The notes beneath the pieces are model-generated. The model saw nothing but the letters and a program-made list of their open reading frames with translations. It ran no database searches and was not told where the DNA came from. The translations under genes and the position numbers were made by a program. DNA of 64,000 nucleotides from an uncultured Clostridia bacterium (GTDB taxonomy: Bacteria; Bacillota; Clostridia; Christensenellales; UBA3700), in assembly GCA_947175555.1 (NCBI GenBank), contig CAMWNK010000001.1:28547-92546 (forward strand), given 5' to 3'. Each line of letters starts with the position of its first letter. Position 1 is the stretch's first letter. Below, in pieces: positions 26,795-47,079 of this stretch.

Positions 26795-27166
26795 ATGGCA
26801 GATATAGCAAAATTGTTAGAGGAAATCAAGGGTATGACCGTGCTCGAGCTTAACGATCTCGTTAAGGCTATCGAGACTGAGTTCGGCGTAAGCGCTGCGG
26901 CTATGGCAGTTGCTGCTCCTGCTGCTGGCGGAGCTGCTGCGGCTGAGGAAGAGAAGACTGAGTTCGACGTTATCCTCAAGGCGTTCGGCGCTAACAAGCT
27001 CGCGGTTATCAAGACCGTTAGAGAGATCACAGGTCTCGGACTTGCCGACGCTAAGGCGTTGGTTGAGAGCGCTCCTAAGGCTATCAAGGAAGGCATCGCT
27101 AAAGATGCTGCCGACGAAATCGCTAAGAAGCTCACCGAGGCAGGCGCAGAAGTCGAAGTTAAGTAA
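26795..27166 (+). CDS. rplL: 50S ribosomal protein L7/L12
   Basis: Ala-rich hinge [26 protein letters not shown], then [24 protein letters not shown]. Confidence 0.97.
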
Positions 27167-27248
27167 TTGCAGGATTACTGATCGCGTATTAATGCGCGGC
27201 TTAGCGGCGCGGGATTTCCCGCGCCGTTATTGCATATTTAAGATAAAC

Positions 27249-27287
27249 GACAGCGGCATTTGTGTTATGCCGCTGTCGTTTCGCTTT
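27249..27287. terminator. Bidirectional terminator between rplL and the convergent DUF378 gene
   Basis: 11-bp stem GACAGCGGCAT-ttgtgtt-ATGCCGCTGTC with T-rich tails on both strands. A second GC hairpin lies at 27206-27225. Confidence 0.6.
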
Positions 27288-27321
27288 ATGCGTATACAAA
27301 AGTAAGAAGTTATAACCGTTA

Positions 27322-27576
27322 TTAGTTGCTTTCCTTCTTATGCTTACGCATCATAGCCGTCTCGGGCGCATTAATACGTGCTGCGCTGAACTTGTTGAAT
27401 ATGAGATAGAACAAAGCCCACAGTCCCGCAACGCCTACTATGGCATATATTATTCTCGCGCCTATATACGAAGAGGTGGAGAATATCCAGTTAACTATAT
27501 TGAAGTCGAATATACCGACGGACAACCAGTTAATTGCGCCCACGATTATCAATATCAGAGATATTACGGTAATCAT
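27322..27576 (-). CDS. DUF378-family small membrane protein
   Basis: 84 aa; LILIIVGAINWLSVGIFDFNIVNWIF matches the DUF378 G.NWG.VG.F.F..V pattern as I recall it. Confidence 0.7.
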   Translation of the reverse strand: MITVISLILIIVGAINWLSVGIFDFNIVNWIFSTSSYIGARIIYAIVGVAGLWALFYLIFNKFSAARINAPETAMMRKHKKESN

Positions 27577-27663
27577 ATATTCCTCCTTATAAGGTTTCTT
27601 GAATTATTGTAAGCAAACTGCGCGTTATTATTCTGCGCGCTTTGCTGCTCGAGCGGCAATCGC

Positions 27664-27692
27664 TTGATATATTCTTGCCGATTTTATATAAT
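27664..27692 (+). promoter_or_regulatory. Promoter placed for a leaderless transcript of the 27699 gene
   Basis: TTGATA (27664-27669), 17-nt spacer, TATAAT (27687-27692). ATG 27699 lies 6 nt after the -10, with no Shine-Dalgarno. Confidence 0.45.
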
Positions 27693-27698
27693 AAGCGT

Positions 27699-28499
27699 AT
27701 GGCAAGCAGAGCTAAACGCAAGGGCAAGGATCCCGTCGCTAACAAGAATTATAAAGAGCAGGCAGTCGCTATCGAGAGGGAGCGCGCTATTAAGCGCAAT
27801 CGCAAGCTATACGCAATAGTGTGCGGATTGTTGCTTTTAGCGGTCATCATAGTAATGATGCCGTTCAATACGGCAGGTATTGTCAATATCAGCGTGAGCG
27901 GCAAAATGACGTTTGGCATCAGTGATAGCGTCAATGATTACGATGTGGACGTCAATGTTCCGCTCAATGCCGTAGAGATAATATTCGGTCCTGTTAGGAC
28001 AACTAAGCCGATGCCTTATATAGCGATGAAGATACTCGACTCTATCAACTCCGATTATGATAGAGACGAGGTCAATAACGATCCTACGCTGACGCTTTCA
28101 TCATTGGGCATGGCGCCGACTTATGACGAGATGCTTAACAATGCCGTCGCGCCTATATATGCGCTTAGCTGTATTATTGTACTATCGTTGATTGCCCTTA
28201 TCGTTTTGATTGCCGTCAGTATGAGCGGCAAGTGCGGAATGTTGCCGCCGTTGATTTGCGCGGCGATATACGTCGTGCTTGCAATCGTGCAGCTGGGCGT
28301 GGGCATATATGCCTCTAATATTGCTTTCCCCGCGTCAGACGACTTTACAATCAAGCTCGTAACAGGCGCGCAGACATACGTCAATTTCTTCTTCGGCGGG
28401 GCTATATGCGTCGCTACTACTGTGTTTGGATTAAAGCGCAGATCAATCAACCGCGAGTATGGTATAACTTTGCGCGGAGGTAAGAGCGGTGAAGTGTAA
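27699..28499 (+). CDS. Hypothetical multi-pass membrane protein
   Basis: Basic N-terminus MASRAKRKGK, then at least 4 hydrophobic helices. The track start at 27642 precedes the promoter-like element. No recognisable family. Confidence 0.45.
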   Translation: MASRAKRKGKDPVANKNYKEQAVAIERERAIKRNRKLYAIVCGLLLLAVIIVMMPFNTAGIVNISVSGKMTFGISDSVNDYDVDVNVPLNAVEIIFGPVRTTKPMPYIAMKILDSINSDYDRDEVNNDPTLTLSSLGMAPTYDEMLNNAVAPIYALSCIIVLSLIALIVLIAVSMSGKCGMLPPLICAAIYVVLAIVQLGVGIYASNIAFPASDDFTIKLVTGAQTYVNFFFGGAICVATTVFGLKRRSINREYGITLRGGKSGEV

Positions 28500-29208
28500 G
28501 AATTGCGGAGCCGAGATTGACAAGAAGGCTAAGGTGTGCCCCTCATGCAACGCTAAGGTAGAGAAGGTAGGCTACTTTAACTTTATCAAAAGGCGGGAGC
28601 AGCGTTACGAGGAGACTCAGCAACTGCTTGCAAAGTCTTACGTCAGCGACGAGCAGCTGTCCTCGGCAGAAGTCAAGAGCCACGGCGGGATTAAAGCCGT
28701 ATATGTAGGCGAATGCAAGAAACTTATGCGTATAGCCGCGCTTAAGATAGCATTGTTTGCGTTTATTATGGCAGGCAGTATCGCAGTAATTATAATTAGG
28801 CAGTACACTTCGCTTATGTCGTCCGTATCGGATACGTGGACTACGGTGATTTTATTGATAGCGTTTATAGCTATATTTGGGATGCTCGCTCTTTTATACG
28901 ATACAGCTTATTATCTTGTGCGTTGTATACGTCTCAATAAGCAGGGCGAGGGCGTAGCCAAGATTAACTTCGGCAAGCCTCCCGTTGCTATCAGCGCAGG
29001 CAAGCTGTATAATATCGCATTGGATTTTAATTGTCCTAAGTGCGCTAATCCTACGTCTATGCATATTGAGCAGGTTGACGATATGTTTGTCGCAGTATGC
29101 GACTACGACCGTACCCATATGCTTAAGATAGAGGTGGAGGAAATACTCGAAAATATCCGCCCTACGCAATACTCGTCGGACGAAAATATTGACGGCTCAG
29201 CCGAATAA
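28489..29208 (+). CDS. Zinc-ribbon membrane protein (hypothetical)
   Basis: GTG start 8 nt after GGAGG. N-terminal CxxC-x13-CxxC (KCKNCGAE..CPSCNA), two TM helices, and a second Cys pair (CPKC...C). No recognisable family. Confidence 0.5.
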   Translation: MKCKNCGAEIDKKAKVCPSCNAKVEKVGYFNFIKRREQRYEETQQLLAKSYVSDEQLSSAEVKSHGGIKAVYVGECKKLMRIAALKIALFAFIMAGSIAVIIIRQYTSLMSSVSDTWTTVILLIAFIAIFGMLALLYDTAYYLVRCIRLNKQGEGVAKINFGKPPVAISAGKLYNIALDFNCPKCANPTSMHIEQVDDMFVAVCDYDRTHMLKIEVEEILENIRPTQYSSDENIDGSAE

Positions 29209-29321
29209 AGCTGCAGCTAATCAGCAGATACTTGTAAATAAACCGCACTTCGTAACGGTGTATTTCATAGGGAATTTGGGAAACACTAAATTTAAATATG
29301 AATACACCTTAAAGGCATGTC

Positions 29322-29360
29322 AAAAAGAATGGAGATTGATTATCAGTCTCCATTCTTTTT
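29322..29360. terminator. Bidirectional rho-independent terminator
   Basis: A5-GAATGGAGA-ttgattatcag-TCTCCATTC-T5. Confidence 0.6.
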
Positions 29361-29391
29361 ATTGTTATACTAATTGTGCTAATCGACTGTA

Positions 29392-29589
29392 TTACACACA
29401 AGATTGATAAGCATTAAAATAGCGATAAAATGAGGATGTTTTCATTTTGGATAACGATAATGCTTCAGCTAATCCTATTTTGTGTTGCAAGTATTGTTCC
29501 GCGATCTCGGGGAAATTATCCGGACAAGGTAAACATCCTTGGGGATTAAATAAATCGAAAAATTGAATAAAACAGTAATTTCGTAACAA
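29392..29589 (-). pseudogene. Possible remnant of the C-terminal HTH of a small serine recombinase (resolvase/invertase)
   Basis: ..PDNFPEIAEQYLQHKIGLAEALSLSKMKTSSFYRYFNAY resembles resolvase/Hin C-termini (..LP.NF.E....W..G.I....A...L......STFYR; Hin ends ..GVSTLYRYFPA) recalled from memory. I could not find a catalytic N-terminal domain upstream on that strand. Confidence 0.3.
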
Positions 29590-29681
29590 AGGGTAGCGAA
29601 AGACCTCGTTGTCCTTTGATTTTTTACGAACAGTACGCTAATAATAGAATATAGAAAACAGGAAAAGAGAAGTCAGAACTC

Positions 29682-29710
29682 TTGCAATCAAAAAGCTTTT
29701 GTGCTATAAT
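29682..29710 (+). promoter_or_regulatory. Near-consensus promoter heading the island cargo operon
   Basis: TTGCAA (29682-29687), exactly 17-nt spacer, TATAAT (29705-29710); about 250 nt upstream of the 29964 ATG. Confidence 0.6.
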
Positions 29711-29963
29711 TAATTATGTCGAATTATAATCTAATTCGTAGAAATGTGTTATTGTGGGATAACTATGTTATTATTCCGATAGCAAGTTCTTTTGGCGAAA
29801 TCGTTTGAAGTTGTTCGTAGCTTGGGGCTCGGTAAATCGGACGATGGATATAATTTTCTTGGTAGCGTAAATGCACAATTTTGCGTGAAATAGGAATTGA
29901 TATTATTAACCAAAAAATTGGTTGATGTTGCACTTGAAATAGTGTCTAAAGAGAAATTTTTAT

Positions 29964-30779
29964 ATGAAAAACAAAACTAAAAAATCTAAAAAGAGTAGGA
30001 ATAAAAAGAACGGCGCACGGTTGTCTATTTGGGTGTGGGTTTTTATAGCCGTTACGGTATTGGTTTTTTTATATTGCATAGCTAGCAACATAATTAATCA
30101 TTTAGAAGGAGTGTCAAATACCCTTCAAATAGTTTTTGGGTTAAGTGATTTCGCGAATACGGCCATAGGAGCATTGCTGGGTTTCGGGGCTTCACTACTG
30201 TTGGACAAATATTTGATAGCTGTTAACAAGGAAAAGGTTATAGATAATATTGTTGCTGAAATGACGCGTATGTGTCTATATATTTCAGAAATGTTTGACC
30301 CGTATATTAGACTCCAAGATAACAATGGAAATGAGATTATTAAATTTAGTGATACTTTGCAGGGAGCACTTGATAGTTTAACAAATAAGGCTAATAGCGA
30401 TCAATATAAGCCTGAATTTAAAATATTAAAGAATAGGGTAATTAATCATCGTTATAAAATTTTTTTACCAATTTGGGATTCGGTATTGCAAAATGGAGAC
30501 TTGCTAAGGTTTAAAGATAGAGAGTATTTTGAATGTTTGATAAACATATATACTCGGCTTAATAAATTTAGAGCACAAATTGATGCTTTTGATGCCTCCT
30601 TTGAAAATAAGGAGTTGTTTGAATATTTGGTCGAATTATATTCGGATGTTCAAAGTTTATACAAATATATTAAATTACAAAAAGCTCACTTGATTTTTTT
30701 ATGTGGGTATTTGAAAGGAGAGAGGGTAAGTCAATTAAAAACAGATTTCATGTCTCGTTTTGAATTGGATGTCCGTTGA
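29964..30779 (+). CDS. Hypothetical 2-TM membrane protein with helical cytoplasmic domain (partner of the STAND NTPase)
   Basis: Lys-rich N-terminus (MKNKTKKSKKSRNKKNG). TM1 is LSIWVWVFIAVTVLVFLYCIA and TM2 is AIGALLGFGASLLL, followed by about 190 aa rich in predicted helices. No family recognised. The 3' end overlaps or abuts the next gene. Confidence 0.6.
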   Translation: MKNKTKKSKKSRNKKNGARLSIWVWVFIAVTVLVFLYCIASNIINHLEGVSNTLQIVFGLSDFANTAIGALLGFGASLLLDKYLIAVNKEKVIDNIVAEMTRMCLYISEMFDPYIRLQDNNGNEIIKFSDTLQGALDSLTNKANSDQYKPEFKILKNRVINHRYKIFLPIWDSVLQNGDLLRFKDREYFECLINIYTRLNKFRAQIDAFDASFENKELFEYLVELYSDVQSLYKYIKLQKAHLIFLCGYLKGERVSQLKTDFMSRFELDVR

Positions 30780-33700
30780 TTTTATGACACAAAAGCCTCA
30801 AATATATGATAGTAGGATAGTTGATCCTGATCAATACGATGTGGTAGAGCCTACCATGCCATTGTCGTATTGCAAATTTTATTATCAAGTTGATCTTCCC
30901 GATAATTTTTTGAATCATGAATATGTTGATAAAATTATTAGTGATATCAAATTGGGTGTCAACGCAATTGTATTATATGGCATGGGTGGGATTGGAAAGT
31001 CTACTTTATTAAGAAAAGTTATTGATGATTGCGGAGTTTCTAAAATTGCTTATTTTGATCTTAGAAATAAGCGTGATTTTTGTTCTACAGCTCGTGATAT
31101 TTTGCAAGATTTATTTCAATATAGAGTAGAAAATGATAAAAATTTAATGAATGAACTTCTAAGCAAGATCAAAGAGAACAATATTTTAATTATTTTTGAT
31201 AACTTAGAGTCGATAATGGATGAGGGTGGAAACTCTGGTAAAATGTTACCAGATTTTTATGAATATCAACAGCTTGCTGAAGCCGTTATAAATATAACCA
31301 CAAGCTCAACTATAATCTTTTCCGGTAGAGATAAGTTGAAACTAAGTTCCAGATCTGATAAATATAATGAGTATGCTTTAACAGGATTTGATGAGCAAAA
31401 AGCGAAGGCATTTCTTGCTAAGTATAATTTAGCAGGAACTGATAAAGAGTGGGCGCTGTTTGTAGAAATTTATAAAGGCAATCCGCTATCCCTAAAAATT
31501 ATAGCTGAAGAAATTCGATCCAATTATCATTCAAGCCTATTAGAGTTTCTTGCTGATCCTAATATGCCGCGAGAACTTACTGATTTACTTGAAGAACAAT
31601 TTAATAGGTTTAGTCTTATAGAGAAAAATATTCTATTTATATTGGCGGTTGAAAGAGAACCTATTTCGTATAAGAATATCAACGCAATGCTTGTTAAAAT
31701 TAATCGTTTCAATGATGAAACAAGGAATGCAATTGTTAGTATTTCAAATAGATGTTTTATTGAAGGCAGAGGCACAAATTTAGATTATAGTAGATTTTAT
31801 TTGCAACCCGTTATTATGGAGTTCTTAACGCAAAAATTGTTGGGCATTGTTTTCAACGAAATTGTTGAAAACAATCCAGATTTTCTAATGAGAGTTCCTA
31901 TGTTAGATACGGTAGCGAGGGACTATATTGTTAAGACACAAAAAATAGTAATTATAGAACCGTTGTGCAATGCGCTTCTGCAAGAATATGGGCAAAATTC
32001 AAGTGTAAAGATGCTTGCAAATATGAATAGCACTATTCCAACAGATAAAAATTACGCATGTGGAAACATTATAAACATTTTGACTTCTATTTTAGATACG
32101 ATAAGAGATATAGACTTTTCAGATAAATATATTATTAATGCTGATTTTCGTTATAATGATTTTTGCGACTGCAAATTTGTTGGTGCTACATTTTTAAATG
32201 TACTTTTTAGACAAACATTTGGTAATTTAATTGACGTTAAGTACTCGCATGACGATCAGTTATTAATAGGAGGGACAACTGATTATAGTATTAATATATG
32301 GTCAGCAAAAGATTTAAGCCTTCTTCATAGATTGCCGTATCATTCGGATTGGGTTCGTTCGGTAGATACTAATGAAAAATACATTGCTAGCGCAAGCAAC
32401 GATGAAACTCTTTCTATTATAGATTATAAAACATGTCAATTGCTTAATACATTTAGCGTGAGCGGGAGAGTAAGGAAAGTAAGATTTAATCCTTTTGATG
32501 ATAATATTCTTTTTTCATCCGGAGATGATTTAAAAATACATATCTGGGATATCTCTGCTGGTAAAGAGTTAAGAGAGCCATTAATAGGGCACGAAGCGGT
32601 TGTTGGTGATTTCGATGTTATTAAAACTAGGGGTAAAACATGTATTGTAAGCTGTTCTGATGATGGTACATTGCGTTTGTGGAATTTAGATTTAAACACA
32701 AGTGAGATACTTTTAAGGTTGGACACAGAAATTAGAACGGTAGTGTATGATGGATTTGAGAATTTGTATATTGGTTGTTCTAATGGAAACATATGGGCTT
32801 ATTCTTTAATAGACAAAATCATTAAAGGAGAATACAAAGAACATCACGGTACCATATGGGGCTTAGATTACGATGAAAAAAACAATAGATTGGTGTCATG
32901 CTCTGCCGACAAAACTGTAATTGTTTGGGAATGCACGAAAGAATCTATAACTATGTTAAAGGTTTTGAATGCGCATTCTTGTACTGTATGGAGTGCTCAT
33001 TTTAATGGAAACGGGGATTATATAGTTTCTACTGGAGATGATGGAGAAGTAAAAGTTTGGGATACTAAAACCTTTAATCCGATTTATTGCATTAAGGGAT
33101 ATACTAATCTTTTGAGAAATTTAACTATAAATAAAACCAATAACAATGTTTTTGTCTGTGGTGATGATATGCTTATTAGAGAATTCGCTAGCGATAATTT
33201 CCTTTATCGAAAGCGGGTTTATAAGGGGCATATTAATCGAGTTAGACACGTCGATATATCTTCAGATGGCCAATATATGCTTTCATGTGGAGATGATGGT
33301 TGTGTTATATTATGGAACTTATTTACTAAGAAACATATTAAATTCTTTGGTCATAAAGAAAGGGTGTGGACGGTTTGCTTTTTAAATAATAATCAATTTG
33401 CCAGTGCTGGAGAGGAGAATGACATTTATTTGTGGGACAAGTCTTCGCCTGATGCCCCAATTGGATATTTAAAAGGTCATTCAAATTGGATATGGGACAT
33501 ATCGTTTGATGAAACAACTAATAAACTAATAAGTGCTGGAGAAGACGGTACTTGTCGAGTTTGGGATTTAACAACAGGCGCGGTAACGGTTTTAAGCGGT
33601 CATACGAAATGGCTTTTTGCAGCTAATATAAGTCCCAATAAAAGAATGGTGGTTACTGCAAGTGCGGATGGAACAGCAAATGTTTATGATGTATTTACTG

Positions 33701-34086
33701 GAGAAATTTTATATAAGCTAGTTGGACATCGTGAATGGGTATGGAGTGCGATATTTTTGTCTGATACACTTATTGCAACGGGTGGAAAAGAAGGGGCAAT
33801 TAAAATCTGGTGTCTTAATGGGAACAGGCATGCGGAATGTGTGAAGAGCATAGATGCTCATGATTCTTGGGTTGTTTCTCTTGCATACATGCAAAATTCT
33901 TCAGCGTTCTACTCTGCTTCGGCTGATTCAACAGTTAAAGTATGGGATGTGCGATCTTTCAATCAAATTACATGTTTGCATATTGATAAGCCATATGAAA
34001 ATATTGATATTACCGATGCGAAAGGTTTAAATGAAACAGAATTAAGCTCCTTGTTAAGTTTGGGAGCATTAATAAAAAACATATAA
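30760..34086 (+). CDS. STAND-class P-loop NTPase: NB-ARC-like NTPase + pentapeptide repeats + ~14 WD40 repeats
   Basis: Walker A LYGMGGIGKSTLL (nt ~30979), Walker B NILIIFDNLES, and a GxPLxL-like motif YKGNPLSLKIIAE. Pentapeptide periodicity in INADFRYNDFCDCKFVGATFLNVLFRQTF. I count about 14 WD40 units (e.g. GHSNWIWDISFDETTNKLISAGEDGTCRVWD). The start is ambiguous: TTG 30760, ATG 30769 or ATG 30784. Confidence 0.85.
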   Translation: MNWMSVDFMTQKPQIYDSRIVDPDQYDVVEPTMPLSYCKFYYQVDLPDNFLNHEYVDKIISDIKLGVNAIVLYGMGGIGKSTLLRKVIDDCGVSKIAYFDLRNKRDFCSTARDILQDLFQYRVENDKNLMNELLSKIKENNILIIFDNLESIMDEGGNSGKMLPDFYEYQQLAEAVINITTSSTIIFSGRDKLKLSSRSDKYNEYALTGFDEQKAKAFLAKYNLAGTDKEWALFVEIYKGNPLSLKIIAEEIRSNYHSSLLEFLADPNMPRELTDLLEEQFNRFSLIEKNILFILAVEREPISYKNINAMLVKINRFNDETRNAIVSISNRCFIEGRGTNLDYSRFYLQPVIMEFLTQKLLGIVFNEIVENNPDFLMRVPMLDTVARDYIVKTQKIVIIEPLCNALLQEYGQNSSVKMLANMNSTIPTDKNYACGNIINILTSILDTIRDIDFSDKYIINADFRYNDFCDCKFVGATFLNVLFRQTFGNLIDVKYSHDDQLLIGGTTDYSINIWSAKDLSLLHRLPYHSDWVRSVDTNEKYIASASNDETLSIIDYKTCQLLNTFSVSGRVRKVRFNPFDDNILFSSGDDLKIHIWDISAGKELREPLIGHEAVVGDFDVIKTRGKTCIVSCSDDGTLRLWNLDLNTSEILLRLDTEIRTVVYDGFENLYIGCSNGNIWAYSLIDKIIKGEYKEHHGTIWGLDYDEKNNRLVSCSADKTVIVWECTKESITMLKVLNAHSCTVWSAHFNGNGDYIVSTGDDGEVKVWDTKTFNPIYCIKGYTNLLRNLTINKTNNNVFVCGDDMLIREFASDNFLYRKRVYKGHINRVRHVDISSDGQYMLSCGDDGCVILWNLFTKKHIKFFGHKERVWTVCFLNNNQFASAGEENDIYLWDKSSPDAPIGYLKGHSNWIWDISFDETTNKLISAGEDGTCRVWDLTTGAVTVLSGHTKWLFAANISPNKRMVVTASADGTANVYDVFTGEILYKLVGHREWVWSAIFLSDTLIATGGKEGAIKIWCLNGNRHAECVKSIDAHDSWVVSLAYMQNSSAFYSASADSTVKVWDVRSFNQITCLHIDKPYENIDITDAKGLNETELSSLLSLGALIKNI

Positions 34087-34096
34087 GGAGTAAAAC

Positions 34097-35053
34097 ATGA
34101 AAATTTTTGTACTTGGCGGTTCTAATTTTATAGGATGGAGATTGGTTCAATATCTTGGTAATACTGGTAATGAAGTTACGGTTTACAATCGAGGAAATCA
34201 TGAGCGCATTTATCCCAAAAATGTAATACATGTTATAGGGGACAGAACCGACACAGCCAAATTGTTAAAACTTGCTGAAAACAATTATGATGTCGTGTAT
34301 GATATGTGTGCATTTACCGGCGCGCAAATTAAGCCTACAATAGAATGTTTTAAGAATAAAGTTGGTAGGTATGTTTTTATTAGTTCCGCCGCAGCATATC
34401 TAGATAATCAGATTCTTCCGATAAAAGAAGATGCCATGTGTGGAGAACATCCGCAGTGGGGAAAATATGGTAATGGAAAATATGAATGTGAGCTCTTGTT
34501 AAAAGAAGCTTATAATGAATATAATTTCCCGATTACTATTGTCCGCCCTTCATATGTCTACGGAATCGGAAACCCCATCGATAGGGAAACGCTATTATTT
34601 GACCGTATCTCGAAAAGCTTGCCAATATTTATACCTTATAGCGGATACGGCGTTATTCAACTTGGTAATGTTGATGATTTATGCAATGCGTTATATTTGA
34701 TTGCGTGTTCCAATAAAGGGAAAGGCGAATCATATAACATTTCTGGAGAGGAGTACGTAACGCTAAATGGACTTGTTCGCATTATTGAAGATATAGTGGG
34801 TAAAAAGACTAATATTTATCACGTATTACCTGAAAAATATGGTTTTGCGCAACGTGAAATATTCCCTTTTGAAAATAATACATATTTTACGAGTATCCAA
34901 AAGTTCAAAAATGATTTTGACTGGAAACCCACTATAGGTTTATTAGAAGGATTAAAGCAAGCTTATTTGCATTGGTGCAAAGCACCCATAAAAACAAATT
35001 ATACAAACGAAGAAAAATTAGCGCAAATCCTTAAAGGGAATGGAACATTATGA
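34097..35053 (+). CDS. NAD(P)-dependent epimerase/dehydratase (extended SDR)
   Basis: RBS AAGGAG. Rossmann motif MKIFVLGGSNFIGWRL, catalytic YxxxK (YGNGKYECE), 318 aa. Confidence 0.8.
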   Translation: MKIFVLGGSNFIGWRLVQYLGNTGNEVTVYNRGNHERIYPKNVIHVIGDRTDTAKLLKLAENNYDVVYDMCAFTGAQIKPTIECFKNKVGRYVFISSAAAYLDNQILPIKEDAMCGEHPQWGKYGNGKYECELLLKEAYNEYNFPITIVRPSYVYGIGNPIDRETLLFDRISKSLPIFIPYSGYGVIQLGNVDDLCNALYLIACSNKGKGESYNISGEEYVTLNGLVRIIEDIVGKKTNIYHVLPEKYGFAQREIFPFENNTYFTSIQKFKNDFDWKPTIGLLEGLKQAYLHWCKAPIKTNYTNEEKLAQILKGNGTL

Positions 35054-36168
35054 GTTATTCGACAAAATGTATTCAGGAAAAAATACAACTTCTGTGTTAT
35101 GGTTTGAGAACAAATGGGTTAGTAGAACAAATCTATGATATTCAGAATCCATACGATTTAACACGGACGGGAAATGTTGGACTTCAGTTGCTTATTGGAG
35201 ATAATAATCTTGTGGCGAATGTTCCTGTGTTTAATAAATTTACGCAGTTTTCGCCATTTAAATTAGATAATTGTGATGGTTACTTGATGGTTGAAAATGA
35301 AAAATCGGGCGAAAAGTTTCCATTTCAAATTATTCAAACACCTCGATGGTACAAAAATCCAGTTAGAAATGGACATGCTGCGGGTCAATATGTGTTGAGA
35401 GAGGGGACAGGCACATTAATTTGTTCTATAACAGATTCCTGCGGTTATGTTGCGAAAAATATGCAATGTAGATTTTGCGCAATTGGCAAGAATTCCGACA
35501 ACTGGGATGAATCTTACGCTAATCGCAAACAAAATATTTTACAAGCTATTAGATATGCCATAGAAGACGACCAAGAAGTTGAAACGTCCATTAATTTAAC
35601 AGGCGGAAATACTTATGCTGATGATAGAGGTGCGGCAAGATATAACGAATTTATTAGCGAAATTAGAAAGTTTTCCTCCGTACCTATATGTATTGAATTG
35701 TCGCCACCAAAAACAAACGACTCTATTTTAAAGCTTAAATTAGCAGGCGCAAATGCAGTTATGATGAATATCGAAGTTTGGGATGAACAGATTCGAGCGA
35801 TGCTCATGCCGGGTAAATCACAAATTTTGAGAGATAGGTATATTGAGGCATGGAAATATGCAGTCGAAATATTTGGTGTCGGGAACGTAAGTTCCGTATT
35901 GATTATTGGACTAGAAAGCAAAGAATCGGCAAAAAATGCTATTGACGAAATGATAGCATGTGGTGTTATTCCATCAATAATGCCTTTTAGACCAAATGAT
36001 GGTGCAGTCTTAGAAAATTTTCCTATTACTAATCCAGAATTGGTTTTCGAATTAACGGAATATACAGCAAAAAAAATTAGAGATTCAAACATTAACGTTG
36101 TTGCTCTGCCGGGCTGCATTGGGTGTGGCGCATGTGCTACGGAATTAGATTTTCTAAACATAAAGTGA
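35050..36168 (+). CDS. Radical-SAM-like enzyme with atypical cluster motif
   Basis: Cys motif C131-x8-C140-x2-C143 (SCGYVAKNMQCRFCAIG) preceded by C125. GGN/GGE-like INLTGGNTY. C-terminal CIGCGAC (CxxCxxC). About 120-aa N-terminal domain of unknown type. ATGA overlap with the upstream gene. Confidence 0.6.
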   Translation: MSYSTKCIQEKIQLLCYGLRTNGLVEQIYDIQNPYDLTRTGNVGLQLLIGDNNLVANVPVFNKFTQFSPFKLDNCDGYLMVENEKSGEKFPFQIIQTPRWYKNPVRNGHAAGQYVLREGTGTLICSITDSCGYVAKNMQCRFCAIGKNSDNWDESYANRKQNILQAIRYAIEDDQEVETSINLTGGNTYADDRGAARYNEFISEIRKFSSVPICIELSPPKTNDSILKLKLAGANAVMMNIEVWDEQIRAMLMPGKSQILRDRYIEAWKYAVEIFGVGNVSSVLIIGLESKESAKNAIDEMIACGVIPSIMPFRPNDGAVLENFPITNPELVFELTEYTAKKIRDSNINVVALPGCIGCGACATELDFLNIK

Positions 36169-36178
36169 GGTTAATAAT

Positions 36179-37006
36179 ATGAAAAACGAAAATGCAACAT
36201 GGAATAATTTTTTGGCATTGACTTGGGATAAATACTTGCCTCCCATTAGACCATATACGGATGAATGTGAAATTTTCAAAAGCTATGTCCATAATTTTAT
36301 TATAGAGCATAATGCAATTCCTCAAATACTTATTTTGGGCTCAACTCCCGAATTGAGAGATTTGGTTTATGAGTTTGGTATTATTCCTACAGTTGTTGAT
36401 TTTGCAAAAGATAATTATGAAGGTATGAGCTTGCTTTGTAAGAATAAGGGACAGGATAACTTTATTGAAAGCAATTGGTTAGAGTTAGCTCCTAAAAATT
36501 GTGCCAAGAAATTCGATTTCATCTTAAGTGAAGCAGCTTTTAACGTTTTGAGTAGGGATAGCGCAAAACGTCTATATGCAATTTGCAAAGAATTGCTAAA
36601 TGAACATGGAAAAATAATCGCTAAACAGTGGGTTAGACTCTCCAATAAAAGGCCTAGCTTAGAAAATTTATTAGAGGACTATCGAAATAGTAATAGCACT
36701 ATGGGCATGTATTCACATATATGTATTCCGTTGATGCTATGTTTCTACGATTATTCAATCGAGAGAATCACATTAAGAGATTTAGAGAAAAATGTTCGTA
36801 AATTATATGAAACAAAATTAATCACGCAAAATGAATGGGAAACTATTAATTTACACGATTATCAAAATGTAGACTTGGAGTTGTACATCCCTTTATTGCA
36901 GCAGTTTTTATCTGATATGAACGAGTGTTTTAATTTAATAAATTTACATGTGGTAGACAAAGGATTTGCCCAGTTTCATCCTATTTTTGTGTTTGAGAGG
37001 GTGTAG
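36179..37006 (+). CDS. Methyltransferase-fold protein (weak, degenerate SAM motif)
   Basis: ILILGSTPELRDL / VVDFAKDNY / FDFILSEAAFNVL are spaced like class-I methyltransferase motifs I, post-I and II, but the glycine-rich loop is degenerate. Assignment is tentative. Confidence 0.4.
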   Translation: MKNENATWNNFLALTWDKYLPPIRPYTDECEIFKSYVHNFIIEHNAIPQILILGSTPELRDLVYEFGIIPTVVDFAKDNYEGMSLLCKNKGQDNFIESNWLELAPKNCAKKFDFILSEAAFNVLSRDSAKRLYAICKELLNEHGKIIAKQWVRLSNKRPSLENLLEDYRNSNSTMGMYSHICIPLMLCFYDYSIERITLRDLEKNVRKLYETKLITQNEWETINLHDYQNVDLELYIPLLQQFLSDMNECFNLINLHVVDKGFAQFHPIFVFERV

Positions 37007-37009
37007 TAA

Positions 37010-38155
37010 ATGGAACTTGATGTTGTTAATCTAAGACGAGAATTTCATATGATACCTGAAGTTGGGTTCAAAGAATTTCAAACAAGCAAATTGATTTGTT
37101 CAATTTTAACGAACAATAATATTCAATATCAAAGTGGAATAGCAGGTACTGGAGTAATAGTTAAATTTGGCGAAGGTCATCCACATATTGCATTTCGTAC
37201 GGAAATTGATGCACTACCAATTCAAGAATTAAATGAGGTGTCGTATAAATCTAAAATCAATGGTTTTATGCATGCTTGTGGGCATGATTGCCATATAGCC
37301 GCCCTGATTGATACGGTGATAAAAGTAAAGGCACTTTTTGATGAAAAAATTATTAAAAAGGGTGCGGTAAGTTTTATTTTTCAACCGAGTGAAGAGGCTA
37401 AGAATGATTCTGGATTTTCGGGTGGTCAAATTATTTCAGAACTGCCGGCATTACAAGATGTAGATAATTTCTTTGCTGCTCATGTAGAAAGCACATTAGA
37501 CTTTGGAAAAATATTTATTAGAGGTGGGGCTTTAACCGCCGCAATTGATAGGTTTGATATTAGTATTATTGGTAAAGCTGGACACGGTGCTTATCCGCAT
37601 AATGCAGTTGATCCAATTTGGTTATCAAGCAATGTTATGCAAGCCATTAATTCTTTAAAATCAAGAACTGTAAATACGGCAAACCCATCGGTCATTTCTA
37701 TATGTTCAATTAACGGTGGAACCTCATGGAATTCCATTCCAAACGAGGTTGCTTTAACTGGGACTATTAGAACATTTAATCAAAATGATAGGGAAAAAAT
37801 TCACAAGGATATTGGGTCTTGTTTGCAAATAGCTAAGGCTTTAGGCGGGAATTATCAATTGAAGATTTCGCAAGGACATCCAAGTGTAATCAATTCTGAT
37901 GAAGAGTGCGAAGTAGTTCGGTCTGCAGTTAAAAAAGTATTAGGCGACTCAGCAATATCAATAATTGATTTTCAGATGGGTGGCGATGATTTTTCATATT
38001 ATGCAACAAAAAAGCCGTCCTGCTATTTTTATGTTGGGGCGAAAAAAGACCAGATTTCTCGGCAACACCATAGCGGCAATTTCGATATAAACGAGAAGGC
38101 TATTGAGAATATTGTTAATATTTTTATAGAAATTATAAAGGAAAAATTACTGTGA
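37010..38155 (+). CDS. M20D-family amidohydrolase (aminoacylase/hippurate hydrolase-like)
   Basis: RREFHMIPEVGFKEFQTS and GFMHACGHDCHIAAL are hallmark M20D motifs; 381 aa. Confidence 0.8.
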   Translation: MELDVVNLRREFHMIPEVGFKEFQTSKLICSILTNNNIQYQSGIAGTGVIVKFGEGHPHIAFRTEIDALPIQELNEVSYKSKINGFMHACGHDCHIAALIDTVIKVKALFDEKIIKKGAVSFIFQPSEEAKNDSGFSGGQIISELPALQDVDNFFAAHVESTLDFGKIFIRGGALTAAIDRFDISIIGKAGHGAYPHNAVDPIWLSSNVMQAINSLKSRTVNTANPSVISICSINGGTSWNSIPNEVALTGTIRTFNQNDREKIHKDIGSCLQIAKALGGNYQLKISQGHPSVINSDEECEVVRSAVKKVLGDSAISIIDFQMGGDDFSYYATKKPSCYFYVGAKKDQISRQHHSGNFDINEKAIENIVNIFIEIIKEKLL

Positions 38156-39186
38156 AAAAAAATCCTATCATAGATGGGCATATTGATTTAGCGTGGAATT
38201 GGTTGGCTCTAAATAGACTTTTTGAGGATTCTGTCGAATTAAAGGGCACTAAAGATACAGAAGAAATAAAACAATATGAAGGCATAGCTTCAGTTGGATT
38301 TCCAGAAATAAAACAAGGAAATATTCGAATTATTTTTGGAACTATTTGGGTGGAAACAATTAATAGTTTGCACCCCTCATTGGGTCCAAAATACAATACG
38401 GCAGAGGAGTCGATTGCTTTAGCAAAAAAACAATATGATTATTATTTAGATTTATGTAAAAAAAATGAAGATATTTGTTTAATAAAAGATTATCAAACAG
38501 TATCTCGCGTTCTTTTCGGCGATGAATCTCATTTGGGAATAGTTCCAATCATTGAAGGGGCTGATTTTATACATAATTTGAATGATTTGAATTACTGGCT
38601 GGATTTATTAGGAATAAAAATAATTGCCCCAGTATGGCAGAAGAATCAATTTGGTGGCTGTTCTGAATTGGGTGGAGGAATTACTGCCGAAGGAAAAAAA
38701 TTTATAAGCAATTTAACAAAGCTCAATTGTGTAATTGATATTGCTCATATGTCTCAACAAACAGCGGATACTGTTTTAAATGAATCAGACACAGTAATTG
38801 TTAATACGCATACTGCTTGCAAACATTTTGTAAACGATGCGCGATTAATTACCGATAGTCAAATTAGAAAGATAAATGAACACAATGGTGTTATTGGTTT
38901 AATGACTTGGGCTAGTAAATTGTCAAATCGTTCGAGTGTTTCTTTAACTGATTTTATAAAGCAAATTGAACACATAGCCAACATAACGGGCACAATAGAT
39001 AATATTGCAATAGGCAGTAGTATGGATGGTGGATATGGAAGAGACAATCTTCCACATGGCATGGACAATATAGGTTCTTTAAATAAAATTGGAGATACAA
39101 TGTTGTCTTACGGTTTTAAAGATAGCGATATCGAGTCGGTGCTATATAAAAACTGGCAAAGAGTATTGCAATATGCTTATAAATGA
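38152..39186 (+). CDS. M19-family (renal-type) dipeptidase
   Basis: IIDGHIDLAWN (cf. DGHNDLP), DIAHMSQQT, and NTHTACKHFVNDARLITDSQIRKINEHNGVIGL (cf. SHS....c.h.RN..D). 4-nt overlap with the M20D gene. Confidence 0.75.
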   Translation: MKKNPIIDGHIDLAWNWLALNRLFEDSVELKGTKDTEEIKQYEGIASVGFPEIKQGNIRIIFGTIWVETINSLHPSLGPKYNTAEESIALAKKQYDYYLDLCKKNEDICLIKDYQTVSRVLFGDESHLGIVPIIEGADFIHNLNDLNYWLDLLGIKIIAPVWQKNQFGGCSELGGGITAEGKKFISNLTKLNCVIDIAHMSQQTADTVLNESDTVIVNTHTACKHFVNDARLITDSQIRKINEHNGVIGLMTWASKLSNRSSVSLTDFIKQIEHIANITGTIDNIAIGSSMDGGYGRDNLPHGMDNIGSLNKIGDTMLSYGFKDSDIESVLYKNWQRVLQYAYK

Positions 39187-39199
39187 GGTGTTTTGCTCA

Positions 39200-39826
39200 A
39201 TGGAAAGAAAAAAAATAATTAATAGATATAAGCGCGCCGAGGTTTATGATATTTATAATAAGCGTGATTGTCCGTTTTGCTTTATCATGACAAAAATTGA
39301 CATCACCAATATAGTTAAGTATTGCAAAAAACATAAACATTATTATGCAACTATTGCGTGGGCATTAATGATGGCAACAAATGATATGTTCGAGATGCGA
39401 ATCAGATATGAAGATGGCGAATTTTACGAATATGATCTAATGCATCCTGAATTTATGTTGCCTTTTGAAAATGGGATAGCGGGTTGTCTTGGCTGTGAAA
39501 TGAAAAAAAATTATGTAGAATTCATCCAAGAATATGATAAGCAAAAAAGCATATTTGAAAATCTACAAGAGAATATTTATTGTCAAGATAATGGCACAAT
39601 TTGGATAAGCTGTGAACCGTGGATGGAATTGAGTTCTATAATTCCCCCATTTGATAAAAAAATTGATTTTCAACGTTTTATATGGGATAAAATAAAAAAA
39701 GAAAAAGGTCATTATACTGTTAATATACTAATAATGTTTCATCACGGCTACTTAGATGGCCAACATGTGGCACAATTTTTAGACAAGTTTAAGCATTACG
39801 AGGCGGAGTTTAGGAAATATAATTAA
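39200..39826 (+). CDS. CAT-family (chloramphenicol-acetyltransferase-like) acyltransferase
   Basis: ATG 39200 after RBS TGAGGTG; the track start at 39089 lies inside the dipeptidase gene. About 208 aa. Catalytic region IMFHHGYLDGQHVAQFLDKF parallels CAT QVHHAVCDGFHVGRMLNEL. Confidence 0.7.
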   Translation: MERKKIINRYKRAEVYDIYNKRDCPFCFIMTKIDITNIVKYCKKHKHYYATIAWALMMATNDMFEMRIRYEDGEFYEYDLMHPEFMLPFENGIAGCLGCEMKKNYVEFIQEYDKQKSIFENLQENIYCQDNGTIWISCEPWMELSSIIPPFDKKIDFQRFIWDKIKKEKGHYTVNILIMFHHGYLDGQHVAQFLDKFKHYEAEFRKYN

Positions 39827-39971
39827 TGGATAAAATTATAGTCAGAATTCAGTATTAGTTTTTTATCCAGATAAACGAATACGTAATATTAAAAATTGTA
39901 TGGCATCTACCTTACAGAATAACTTTTATTAGGAGACTTATTATAAGATATTTAATTAAATGAGAGAAATA

Positions 39972-39999
39972 AGGAACTTGCAAAATGCAACTTCCTTTT
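39972..39999 (+). terminator. Terminator closing the cargo operon
   Basis: AGGAACTTGCA-aaa-TGCAACTTCCT (one C/C mismatch) followed by TTTT. A second long-loop hairpin, TGGATAAAA...TTTTATCCA, lies just after the CAT stop. Confidence 0.5.
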
Positions 40000-40030
40000 G
40001 TGTGAATGAAATTGCTTGTCTTTGGGAAGA

Positions 40031-40059
40031 TTGCAAATATTCATAATAAGTGATATACT
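40031..40059 (+). promoter_or_regulatory. Promoter placed for a leaderless transcript of the polymerase-like gene
   Basis: TTGCAA (40031-40036), 17-nt spacer, TATACT (40054-40059). ATG 40066 lies 6 nt after the -10, with no SD. Confidence 0.45.
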
Positions 40060-40065
40060 CTAATC

Positions 40066-42624: not shown

Positions 42625-43054
42625 AAAGTGAAAGAGCCTAAAAAGTCAGTAAGTGAAGTGTGTGGCATTATCGAGCCTAATCGGGCATAAACCACTGTTT
42701 TCGACACTATCTTGTGGCAAAAGTCGCATAATGAAACCGCCAACATAAAACCAAGTAATCGGCGTAATAGGACGCGCACGAACAGAGCGCGAATATAGCT
42801 CGACTGTGGACAACGGTCGGGCTTTTATATTGCTTGGACAAAGCATAAACAAATCAATTTTCAAGGAGGAAAAAGCAAACAAAAAACAAGGTGTAGCCGT
42901 TAGCCTTAAAACAATGGCAATAGAAAATTGAATATTAGAAGTGAGGGCTTGGGATGTCGGTAATAGCGAGGAACGTATTTGGCTTGCCAAATACCGCCGA
43001 CAAGTCGGCGTCCTCGTTAGGGAGAGCCCTAAGACCCCAATAAACAGAATGAAC
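42625..43054 (+). other. Non-coding region likely to contain oriT of the element
   Basis: About 430 nt without a credible ORF, directly upstream of mobC and the relaxase gene. Contains inverted repeats (GCCGAC-aa-GTCGGC near 43005; TTAGGG-agag-CCCTAA near 43017-43032). Confidence 0.3.
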
Positions 43055-43068
43055 GAGGAGGAATAATT

Positions 43069-43398
43069 ATAGGGAACAGAACAAGACCCTTTGCTTATAC
43101 ATTCAGAGCGACGGATAAAGAAAGACAAATCATTGATGAGAAAATCAAGCAAAGCGGACTTACAATGACGGAGTTTGTAATACGCACAATTACGGATAAG
43201 CCTATTACCGTAGTCGAGAACGCAGGAGAAATTTTGACCGAACTAAAACGACAAGGCAATAATCTCAATCAGGCGGTGCGCAATTACTATTGCGACAACG
43301 ATACGAGAGCCGAGATTAATTTGTGCGTATCAAAACTGAAAGAACTCTACAAAAGTTTGATCGCCGCTATGGGTGGAACGAGTAATGCCGCTACTTAA
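43069..43398 (+). CDS. mobC: MobC-family relaxosome accessory protein (canonical start codon apparently lost)
   Basis: LKRQGNNLNQAVRNYY is the MobC signature. The conserved RHH-like N-terminus (RTRPFAYTFRATDKERQIIDEKIKQSGLTMTEFV) lies upstream of the first ATG (43165). The frame is open from 43033 with no ATG/GTG/TTG. RBS GAGGAGG (43055-43061) is followed at 7 nt by ATA (43069). Confidence 0.65.
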   Translation: MGNRTRPFAYTFRATDKERQIIDEKIKQSGLTMTEFVIRTITDKPITVVENAGEILTELKRQGNNLNQAVRNYYCDNDTRAEINLCVSKLKELYKSLIAAMGGTSNAAT

Positions 43399-44763: not shown

Positions 44764-44868
44764 ATATAAAGTCGTATTAATATTAAAAAACGCTTGACTC
44801 TTACCGTCTATCCGAGTATAATGGAATAAAGTCGTACAAATACGACGCATATATTTAAGGAGGTAATC

Positions 44869-45156
44869 ATGGAAAAGAAAGACAGATCGGTTAAGGACAA
44901 GCGTTACGAAGAACGACACAAAGCTGAACGTAAAGCCAAGTGTATGGTTTGGGGAACGAGTGTACCGAGAGAAAAAGCCGAACAAATAAACGAGTTTTTG
45001 AAAAGATACGGCTATACAAAGGTACAACTGATAGAAGCAGGATACAACGCGCTCATTGAGCAGGCGGCTGAACATAATACCGACCTTGCGAAAATAATGG
45101 ACGGGTATGATGACTTTTTCGGTTTTGAGAAAGTCGATGAAAAGAAAACCGAATAA
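44869..45156 (+). CDS. Hypothetical small basic protein, possibly ribbon-helix-helix DNA binding
   Basis: RBS AAGGAGG. 95 aa. SVPREKAEQINEFLKRYGYTKVQLIEAGYNAL resembles CopG/Arc-type RHH; tentative. Confidence 0.35.
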   Translation: MEKKDRSVKDKRYEERHKAERKAKCMVWGTSVPREKAEQINEFLKRYGYTKVQLIEAGYNALIEQAAEHNTDLAKIMDGYDDFFGFEKVDEKKTE

Positions 45157-45263
45157 CTATAAAATCTTTTCGTATAAGGAGGAACACGCGATGGAGAGAG
45201 AACATAGTATTCAAAGCTATAAGGACGCGGAGTAATTCCGAGTTAACGTCCGAATAAGGATAC

Positions 45264-47079
<1,816 letters not shown>

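Follow-up and report, generated by a model that had tools for sequence, protein, structure and literature searches.

Background

Bacterial STAND NTPases that resemble Apaf-1 are understood as single proteins, each equipped with its own effector or adaptor. The described systems to which they can be compared are the Apaf-1/AP-ATPase proteins (NB-ARC-WD40) including the cyanobacterial "bacterial Apaf-1 orthologues", the Avs1-7 and bNACHT proteins, the STAND regulators of the AfsR/SARP-NB-ARC, MalT/LAL and XRE-HTH-NB-ARC-WD40 types (HTH, helix-turn-helix), the NLR-amyloid pairs and, at the level of operon organization, the operons controlled by LoaP. Among the sensor types recognised in defence-associated STANDs are WD40 and FGE-sulfatase domains (PMC13581612). 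In this work we have analyzed an Apaf-1-like STAND NTPase without an effector domain, encoded in a 64,000-nucleotide stretch of DNA from an uncultured Clostridia bacterium (contig CAMWNK010000001.1 of assembly GCA_947175555.1, positions 28,547 to 92,546; hereafter called the window, to whose numbering the coordinates refer). Eight genes are closely packed on the same strand here; that of the STAND protein comes second, the first encodes a two-pass membrane protein (2TM), and five encode enzymes found with the STAND protein in related loci.

The kind of protein (AP-ATPase/NB-ARC-WD40) is already known. What is new is an effectorless STAND subclade locked in an operon with an apparently new family of 2TM proteins and with conserved enzymes. 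The comparison of loci strongly suggests a functional link between the STAND protein and the products of the neighbouring genes, i.e. action in trans. We tentatively propose that the protein serves as an NTP-dependent sensor, the trans-acting switch of a mobile conflict-type cassette. The cassette matches no PADLOC system and is not described in the open-access literature consulted, including Kaur et al. 2020 (PMC7159879) and a 2026 survey of STANDs (PMC13581612), so that it is previously undescribed as far as open-access text shows.

An intact STAND NTPase with the architecture of Apaf-1

The STAND gene is an uninterrupted open reading frame (ORF) of 1108 codons, 3.3 kb in length (30760 to 34086, Table 1), and the same gene has been called by NCBI on contig JAIDXL010000036.1 of a metagenome-assembled genome (MAG; assembly GCA_029058825.1). 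Its start codon is ambiguous (TTG 30760, ATG 30769 or ATG 30784); all three candidates overlap or abut the stop codon of the 2TM gene (30777-30779). The P-loop is preceded by 73 residues counted from the TTG and by 65 counted from ATG 30784, hence the figure of about 65 residues given in a preliminary description of this DNA fits the latter start and not the former. The NB-ARC fold begins at approximately residue 46, which leaves an extra N-terminus of at most about 45 residues.

All motifs listed in the preliminary description were found at the places given there: Walker A (GMGGIGKS, residues 74-81), Walker B (LIIFDNLES, residues 143-151) and GNPLSLKIIA (residues 240-249), in which GNP at 240-242 represents the GxP motif. 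In an alignment of 51 homologs G76, G77, G79, K80, D147, E150 and R190, the sensor-1 arginine, are invariant. The STAND NTPase motif set of Walker A, Walker B, sensor-1 Arg and GxP is thus intact. At the position expected for the MHD motif the NB-ARC clan has a conserved LQPV.ME (L348, Q349, V351, E354), the equivalence being judged by eye only. The match of the Pfam NB-ARC model (PF00931) to residues 58-253 exceeded its gathering score (29.7 vs 23.5 bits), whereas the NACHT score of 25.8 remained below its cut-off of 26.7. A sequence search of the PDB with the NTPase half of the protein gave no match.

The NTPase module is followed by a helical arm with long helices at residues 388-425 and 433-444 of the AlphaFold2 model, and by a run of approximately seven pentapeptide-like units. 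This run had been noticed in the preliminary description and is indeed a real feature: it is present in all 51 aligned homologs and forms short strands every 10 residues in the model (447-449, 457-459, 467-469 and 477-479). No match to Pfam Pentapeptide (PF00805) was obtained at E≤1, the run being too short to score; with about seven units, fewer than two coils, it is pentapeptide-like and not a member of the family. Its identity within the subclade is 26-60% when the near-identical protein P0039 is excluded.

Residues 490-1080 were matched by WD40 and other propeller families with E-values down to 1e-80. The count of about 14 blades proposed earlier agrees with 14 blades by sequence and with the 55 strands predicted across residues 490-1073, which fit 14 four-stranded blades; Apaf-1 has 15 (7+8). 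The model, built on the 51 homologs, reached a mean pLDDT of 89.6 and a pTM of 0.87. When it was compared with the PDB by Foldseek, the top full-length matches were murine Apaf-1 (3sfz, 3shf) and the human apoptosome (3j2t, 5juy), with E of about 4e-43 over about 1180 aligned columns. Since full-length Apaf-1 is the best PDB match, the label Apaf-1-like is justified at the level of predicted architecture, that is a nucleotide-binding domain, helical domain 1, winged-helix domain and helical domain 2 (HD2) followed by two β-propellers.

The C-terminal tail, PYENIDITDAKGLNETELSSLLSLGA at residues 1078-1103, contains several positions nearly invariant in the 51 homologs (Y1079, I1084, G1089, L1098, L1101, G1102 and A1103). 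Across the entire NB-ARC-WD40 clan, including its cyanobacterial members, few features are as conserved as the tail motif PYE..I....GL.......L..LGA.

The protein could in principle be a decaying, nonfunctional remnant of an NB-ARC-WD40 protein that formerly bore an HTH or effector domain and has lost it, in keeping with the split backbone genes of the same element and with an ortholog broken by an insertion sequence (IS) element (locus L023, see below). The intact 3.3 kb ORF with all its catalytic motifs speaks against such decay, and so does a domainless architecture kept across lineages at 31-44% identity, which implies long purifying selection; we regard this as the least probable of the explanations considered.

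Absence of an effector in cis

In the model pLDDT stays below 50 for residues 1-45, and across orthologs they vary in length and are 6-33% identical (the 89%-identical P0039 excepted). Pfam, NCBIfam and PADLOC scans gave no family match in the protein outside the NTPase and WD40 regions, and Pfam revealed no EAD or death-like domain at the N-terminus, although relatives carry such domains. A cryptic N-terminal domain was therefore rejected on account of the predicted disorder, the lack of a Pfam match and the lack of conservation among orthologs. The protein has no effector in cis, as was stated in the preliminary description, and no DNA-binding domain is recognisable in it.

An exhaustive HMMER search with residues 1-487 as the query found 3279 relatives. 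The six nearest ones (P0039, 89% identical; P0040, 41%; P0041, 38%; P0042, 35%; P0043, 32%; P0047, 31%) have the P-loop at residues 47-74 and no N-terminal domain, the full-length ones being of about 1100 amino acids. Beyond these six lies a plateau of proteins of about 30% identity whose source names, where available, are cyanobacterial. Among the best 150 relatives the P-loop lies within the first 80 residues in 15, some of which look truncated, and is preceded by more than 80 residues in 129. Because the six nearest relatives have no such domain, as against longer N-termini in 129 of the 150, loss of the N-terminal module appears to be a derived, clade-specific trait.

The N-termini of 64 of the longer relatives were scanned against Pfam. 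DNA-binding domains were found in 29 of them (about 45%), namely XRE-HTH (HTH_3) in 16, SARP-type BTAD in 8 and sigma-r4/LuxR domains in 5 (Sigma-70 region 4_2 in 3 and LuxR-type GerE in 2). The remaining matches were EAD4 (3), Trypsin_2 (2) and one each of EAD1, bDLD1, caspase, CHAT, TIR, protein kinase and receiver domain. By these annotations the surrounding NB-ARC clan appears to mix predicted regulators with conflict-system proteins. The objection that the protein might fall among transcriptional regulators, raised beforehand, thus applies in part: nearly half of the sampled relatives with an N-terminal domain bear a DNA-binding one, and its own subclade has none.

The preliminary description had also suggested that signalling might pass through the short N-terminal segment. 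In a specific form of this idea the segment would be a cryptic adaptor or an amyloid-like motif that templates or recruits the 2TM protein. The apparent translational coupling of the two genes would suit such a pair, and their order fits the context of NLR-associated amyloid motifs described in a preprint (bioRxiv 10.1101/2020.01.06.895854). We disfavour adaptor-peptide signalling and give it very little credence, as residues 1-45 are predicted to be disordered, poorly conserved and variable in length, no EAD or death-like domain is present, unlike in relatives, and no terminal motif common to the two proteins was detected. In Smith-Waterman comparisons of 2TM C-termini with STAND N-termini for six ortholog pairs, 125, 500, 346, 27, 133 and 270 of 500 shuffles reached the observed score; the local alignment scores thus lay inside the shuffle range for five of the six pairs, the sixth being that with 27 of 500. 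A shared amyloid or adaptor motif was rejected on this test, and coupling through the N-terminal segment, the route named in the preliminary description, did not hold.

A conserved and mobile cassette

The gene contexts compared cover about 10 independent loci, all from metagenomes or MAGs, with taxonomy resting on MAG labels. The nearest STAND relatives led to loci L014/L015 (P0040), L016/L017 (P0041), L018 (P0042), L019 (P0047) and L002-L005 (the 89% type), and L023 was found through its radical SAM gene. The order 2TM, STAND, SDR (short-chain dehydrogenase/reductase), radical SAM enzyme, protein of about 273 amino acids, M20 and M19 hydrolases is kept in L002-L005, L014/L015, L016/L017, L018 and L023 as far as the contigs reach; in L014/L015 the contig holds only a C-terminal fragment of the 2TM gene. 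In L019, a rearranged locus of high GC content, the methyltransferase-like and M19 genes have moved upstream and the adjacency of 2TM, STAND and SDR is kept. In every related locus looked up a 2TM homolog lies directly upstream of the STAND gene and the SDR gene is adjacent to it. Outside L002 the STAND proteins of these loci, from at least six lineages, are 31-44% identical to that of the window. Because gene order is conserved, the comparison supports the part of the earlier suggestion that concerned action in trans on neighbouring gene products; only the route through the N-terminus had to be abandoned.

Between the window and L002 nucleotide identity is 90% over exactly 30051-39840 and, at the blastn threshold used, absent outside it. 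The confinement of the identity to this block indicates that the cassette is a discrete transferable module and moves as a unit. It has a GC content of 32-35% and lies in a segment of 41-45% GC downstream of secE-nusG-rplKAJL, the genome having about 50%; the low-GC stretch spans 30-40 kb of the window vs about 50% in the flanks. The segment carries genes for a NikA-like protein, a MobA relaxase and a large serine recombinase. Together with the label "Clostridia bacterium" of the MAG, these features bear out the placement on a Firmicute island. L016 is 79% identical to positions 44769-45267 of the window, so related elements carry the cassette.

Within positions 40066-47079 three backbone genes of the element are split, and all eight cassette genes are intact. 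The split genes are a large backbone gene (40066-41625 and 41671-42624), which in L002 is a single gene of at least 1138 amino acids, the MobA relaxase gene (43373-44110 and 43909-44763) and the large serine recombinase gene (45425-46195 and 46189-47079). Either the element is decaying or the MAG contains frameshift errors.

One has to consider that the STAND protein is self-contained, perhaps a defence sensor whose effector has been lost or is unlinked, and merely hitch-hikes beside metabolic cargo and a membrane gene of the backbone. Unrelated genes are tightly packed in the cargo regions of mobile elements, 2TM homologs occur without STANDs, and so does a radical SAM enzyme of 43% identity. 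Coincidence is nevertheless improbable: the same genes stand beside the STAND gene in at least six lineages in which the protein itself is only 31-44% identical, rearranged L019 included, start and stop codons of the cassette genes overlap or nearly abut, the radical SAM homologs examined with at least 48% identity are all in STAND cassettes, and the 90% block common to L002 covers exactly the eight genes.

The 2TM family, a putative generic partner of STANDs

The 2TM protein has a basic N-terminus, transmembrane (TM) helices at residues of about 17-46 and 61-86, and a cytosolic helical domain. In its AlphaFold2 model (pLDDT 75.5) a helical domain that includes a hairpin comes after the two TM helices, and a fold search of the PDB with this model gave no match at E≤1e-3. 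The protein matched nothing in Pfam, NCBIfam or PADLOC, and a search among 5.8 billion proteins returned only 12 clusters; 2TM thus appears to be a new protein family. The invariant segments are TAIGALLGFGASL in TM2 and PIWDSVLQNGDLL.FKD..YF..L...YT in the cytosolic domain. The invariance of TM2 across the family suggests that the membrane segment is itself functional. The small proteins encoded upstream of STAND in L016, L018, L019 and L023, as well as the L014 fragment, are all homologs of the window 2TM, and the homologs have in common the motifs N[TS]A[IV]GA[LF]LGFG and PIW[DN]..(L/I).(Q/G).GD.L.(F/L)K...Y[FY].

Members of the family also precede STANDs of other types. In L009 (387-8420) the 2TM gene is followed by genes for a NACHT-like NTPase with an FGE-sulfatase domain, a HAD hydrolase, a 935-amino-acid propeller protein and a ThiC-like enzyme. 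In L010 (267-8780) and L011 (770-6896) the gene that follows 2TM encodes a STAND-like protein whose P-loop is degenerate and which also has a GNP motif and an FGE-sulfatase domain; after it come genes for an AKR/UDP-sugar dehydrogenase, a UDP-GlcNAc 2-epimerase and a hexapeptide acetyltransferase. These associations point to 2TM as a generic, though so far predicted, partner of STANDs.

The relationships within the family do not follow the types of cassette. The window 2TM is 55% identical to that of L006, vs 23-29% to the 2TM proteins of its own cassette type, which indicates that modules have been shuffled. In L006 (729-7378) and L013 (3373-9962), the latter being the one extra locus found in a metagenome scan, the 2TM homologs are 54-55% identical to that of the window; the second gene encodes a 326-amino-acid protein with an acidic N-terminus and no NTPase, and the later ones encode GAPDH-like, 2-hydroxyacid dehydrogenase, RraA-like, RidA-like and SDR proteins. 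In L008 (7341-10452) a 39%-identical 2TM homolog is followed by a HAD-fusion protein and no STAND is recognisable. Pattern-based scans of species-representative genomes with the 2TM and radical SAM profiles were both empty, but such scans can miss relatives.

An N-terminal TM hairpin is fused to the NTPase in 9 of the 150 NB-ARC relatives, which means that membrane coupling exists in cis in the clan; these hairpins are not homologous to the 2TM family. A Rosetta-stone fusion of 2TM itself to NB-ARC relatives was also sought, and an hmmsearch of 258 proteins, STAND relatives included, with the 2TM profile matched only the 2TM family.

Proposed role of the STAND protein

We propose that binding of a ligand by the two WD40 propellers would release autoinhibition, and that the NB-ARC module would then exchange its nucleotide and oligomerise in the fashion of Apaf-1. 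The oligomer would then exert its effect in trans, with the cytosolic domain of 2TM as its most probable target. The 2TM protein is the best candidate for the receiver because it is adjacent to STAND in every arrangement, is common to other STAND types, and has a counterpart in the fused TM hairpins of clan relatives; it may serve in the membrane as an effector or an anchor, TM2 being glycine-zipper-like. The switch may be coupled to the making, release or use of a small molecule handled by the five enzymes, which, to judge from the M20, M19 and SDR types, could be an N-acyl-amino-acid, a dipeptide-like or a sugar-linked compound.

The overall role that we consider most likely, and which is the weakest step of the argument, is of the conflict type, i.e. 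defence or antagonism carried by a mobile element. It is suggested by the mobile carriage, the rare and patchy distribution, the modular shuffling and the fast-evolving membrane partner of the cassette, by the WD40 and FGE-sulfatase sensors, both of them types known from defence-associated STANDs (PMC13581612), and by the disruption of one of its copies: at L023:4278-14146 (Clostridia MAG GCA_026000815.1) the STAND gene is split into pieces of 307 and 785 amino acids by an IS200/IS605-type Y1 transposase.

A number of observations weigh against a conflict role. PADLOC found no match to any protein of the cassette or the rest of the island save a WD40-driven HEAT-ARM_XIII match of the STAND protein, and no recognised defence genes lie near the cassette. 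The 2TM homologs of L006/L013 and L008 head cassettes without a STAND, and the 2TM phylogeny is incongruent with cassette type. The remaining points are those on which the principal alternative is built, namely that STAND is an accessory of biosynthesis, a post-translational regulator, sensor of a product or precursor, or scaffold in an operon for a small molecule or the cell surface, without a role in immunity and with 2TM used for export, self-protection or membrane anchoring.

In L002 (154-1192; also L003-L005) a divergent XRE-HTH gene and a gene for a NusG paralog lie ahead of the cassette. The paralog, 23% identical to the NusG of the window, scores as the antiterminator LoaP with NF033641 (134.4 bits vs a cut-off of 125). 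LoaP genes are reported to adjoin operons for secondary metabolites or polysaccharides (PMC12691694), and a LoaP gene directly upstream, as in the L002 cassette, is a hallmark of operons for biosynthesis. The cassettes of L002, L006 and L008 are flanked by divergent XRE-HTH genes. The window copy has neither LoaP nor a divergent XRE-HTH gene, and the other loci, on short contigs, show no LoaP. The enzymes are the most conserved component of the cassette (51-66% identity to the window beyond the L002 type, with radical SAM shown, vs 23-29% for 2TM), and in L023 the 2TM and the five enzyme genes are intact although STAND is broken. Within the subclade (P0039 excluded) propeller B is 41-51% identical and the NTPase module 30-42%; this higher conservation of the propellers, unlike that of fast-evolving phage sensors, suggests an invariant ligand. 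The regulator-type HTH or SARP domains of about 45% of the sampled relatives with an N-terminal domain, the silence of PADLOC and the fact that pattern scans with the 2TM and radical SAM profiles revealed no relatives in viral contigs may be added to the same side.

An accessory role in biosynthesis remains, in our judgement, a rather unlikely though serious candidate. The STAND protein lacks a DNA-binding domain, 2TM with its two helices is no transporter, and the cassette is rare, patchy and carried by mobile elements. Moreover, 2TM is common to unrelated STAND types and enzyme sets, which is the kind of shuffling typical of conflict systems. We know of no effectorless Apaf-1-like STAND that is a core component of biosynthesis, and limited literature searches revealed none.

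The conflict reading and the chemistry of the cassette could be joined in a more speculative proposal, which we hold to be unlikely as it stands. The window would hold one member of a so far unrecognised mobile class of "STAND-gated chemistry" composed of a generic 2TM, a STAND sensor that has no effector and can be exchanged (NB-ARC-WD40, or NACHT-like with FGE-sulfatase) and likewise exchangeable enzymes (SDR/radical SAM/methyltransferase/M20/M19, WecB/WecC-like nucleotide-sugar, or HAD/ThiC-like), in which sensing by STAND would switch on the production, conversion or release of a small molecule. If true, this would be inducible chemical defence or antagonism and not killing by a fused nuclease, protease or NADase.

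If the link between STAND and its neighbours is functional, the cassette would offer a tractable bacterial switch of the NLR/Apaf-1 type that signals in trans, and its output, instead of being proteolysis or NAD depletion, may be chemical. Further cassettes, with different sensors and sets of enzymes, could be sought with the 2TM family as a marker. The system resides on mobile elements of gut-type Clostridia, a group in which STAND biology has hardly been studied.

Other genes of the cassette and the upstream region

The nearest PDB sequences of the SDR are UDP-glucose 4-epimerase and dTDP-glucose 4,6-dehydratase. The radical SAM enzyme is a variant with Cx8Cx2C (C131, C140, C143) in place of the canonical Cx3Cx2C and with a C-terminal CxxCxxC. 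Its assignment to the MSMEG_0568 family (TIGR04043) was rejected (171.1 bits vs the equivalog cut-off of 303.7), as was a viperin-like reading, which neither NCBIfam nor PADLOC supported. A PDB sequence search with it gave no match, and tblastn against plasmids and phages gave only matches of 27-28% identity, the plasmid ones annotated as MSMEG_0568 family and the single phage record unannotated. Relatives of 43% identity from mouse-gut contigs (L020-L022:9232-12857) lie in a cluster without STAND that comprises genes for an SDR, a radical SAM enzyme, an AAA_33 kinase, a CoaE-like kinase and a nucleotidyltransferase, with serine recombinase genes a few kb away.

The 275-amino-acid protein had no family match of its own and its PDB sequence search was empty; it is 41% identical to its ortholog from L019, which gives a weak Methyltransf_25 match, and probably has a class I methyltransferase fold. 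The M20 amidohydrolase has YxeP, ILR1-like hydrolases and N-acyl-glutamine aminoacylase as relatives in the PDB. The CatA-like gene is present in the window and L002 and absent after M19 in L016/L017, L018 and L023, the L014/L015 and L019 contigs ending too early to show its presence or absence. No caspase gene was found in the cassette by Pfam and NCBIfam scans, and it contains no polyketide synthase (PKS), nonribosomal peptide synthetase (NRPS) or glycosyltransferase core. A reading as a cluster for a ribosomally synthesised, modified peptide was rejected: there is no conserved small ORF, and the block common to L002 begins inside the 2TM gene.

A consensus scan placed a promoter-like site ahead of the cassette (Table 1), the total of such sites being not above shuffle expectation, and two terminator-like hairpins upstream of it (29322-29360 and 29587-29618). 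An Rfam scan over 27000-40300 gave no match and thus revealed no leader or riboswitch. In the 756-bp gap before the cassette a 65-amino-acid ORF on the minus strand (29392-29589) contains an HTH-like stretch recognised by eye, LAEALSLSKMKTSSFYRYF, and no Pfam match was obtained for the ORF at E≤0.05. L002, L006 and L008 have a divergent regulator, of which this ORF could be the remains. Three small genes lie between rplL and the cassette (27322-29208, GC 41-46%), with no match to a defence model.

Table 1 Features of the STAND cassette and its upstream region in the window
Feature	Position	Strand	Evidence
STAND NTPase, Apaf-1-like, without effector domain	30760-34086	+	ORF, Pfam, AlphaFold2 model, Foldseek
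STAND residues 1-45, disordered unconserved N-terminus, overlaps 2TM stop codon	30760-30894	+	pLDDT, ortholog identity
STAND residues 46-370, NB-ARC nucleotide-binding domain, helical domain 1 and winged helix	30895-31869	+	Pfam NB-ARC
Walker A, within STAND NTPase	30979-31002	+	
Walker B, within STAND NTPase	31186-31212	+	
GNP, within STAND NTPase	31477-31485	+	
STAND residues 371-445, helical arm, equivalent of Apaf-1 HD2	31870-32094	+	AlphaFold2 helices, Foldseek
STAND residues 446-487, about 7 pentapeptide-like units, mini β-solenoid linker	32095-32220	+	periodicity, AlphaFold2 strands
STAND residues 488-1066, 14 WD40 blades, sufficient for two propellers	32221-33957	+	sequence count, AlphaFold2
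STAND residues 1067-1108, conserved tail with motif PYE..I....GL.......L..LGA	33958-34083	+	homolog alignment
2TM, 271-amino-acid two-pass membrane protein, first cassette gene	29964-30779	+	AlphaFold2 model, homologs
NAD-dependent epimerase/dehydratase, extended SDR type	34097-35053	+	Pfam Epimerase 3.4e-20
Variant radical SAM enzyme	35050-36168	+	NF045502, 172.5 bits vs cut-off 125
275-amino-acid protein, probable class I methyltransferase fold	36179-37006	+	via L019 ortholog
M20 amidohydrolase, aminoacylase type	37010-38155	+	TIGR01891, 306.8 bits vs cut-off 153.75
M19 dipeptidase-family hydrolase	38152-39186	+	Pfam Peptidase_M19 2.9e-50; match to PDB M19 dipeptidases
CatA-like O-acetyltransferase, accessory gene	39200-39826	+	family matches
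Promoter-like site TTGCAA-17-TATAAT with upstream TG	29682-29710	+	consensus scan only
DUF378, between rplL and cassette	27322-27576	-	
285-amino-acid multi-TM protein, between rplL and cassette	27642-28499		
239-amino-acid zinc-ribbon TM protein, between rplL and cassette	28489-29208		

Comparison with known systems

Operons controlled by LoaP resemble the cassette in that the L002 copy lies directly downstream of LoaP and forms a long same-strand operon of tailoring-type enzymes; they differ in that the window has no LoaP and the cassette no PKS, NRPS or glycosyltransferase core. To our knowledge a STAND NTPase is not a feature of such operons. The STAND regulators (AfsR/SARP-NB-ARC, MalT/LAL, XRE-HTH-NB-ARC-WD40) have in common with the protein described here the NB-ARC clan and a link to a biosynthetic-looking operon, but neither this protein nor its subclade has a DNA-binding domain.

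The NLR-amyloid pairs, fungal HET-S/NWD2 and bacterial BASS/Bell, offer the parallel of a membrane-associated gene directly upstream of an NB-ARC-WD40 with a short N-terminus. Here, however, no common terminal motif was found, the STAND N-terminus is not conserved, and 2TM is predicted to be an integral membrane protein of a new family. With Avs1-7 and bNACHT the protein shares the STAND NTPase superfamily and the logic of a sensor joined to an NTPase. It differs from them in having no PADLOC Avs/bNACHT match, a NACHT score below the cut-off, no fused effector, a conserved rather than variable sensor, and partners encoded in a multi-enzyme operon.

The likeness is greatest to Apaf-1 and the AP-ATPases, in which the NB-ARC, winged helix, helical arm and two WD40 propellers come in the same order; the cyanobacterial NB-ARC-WD40 proteins are among the nearest relatives outside the subclade and have the same pentapeptide-like linker and C-terminal tail. 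Unlike these proteins, the STAND of the window has no CARD, caspase, TIR, EAD or HTH domain at its N-terminus, it is found on mobile elements of the Clostridia type and not in multicellular cyanobacteria or actinobacteria, and it is encoded in a fixed operon with 2TM and five enzymes.

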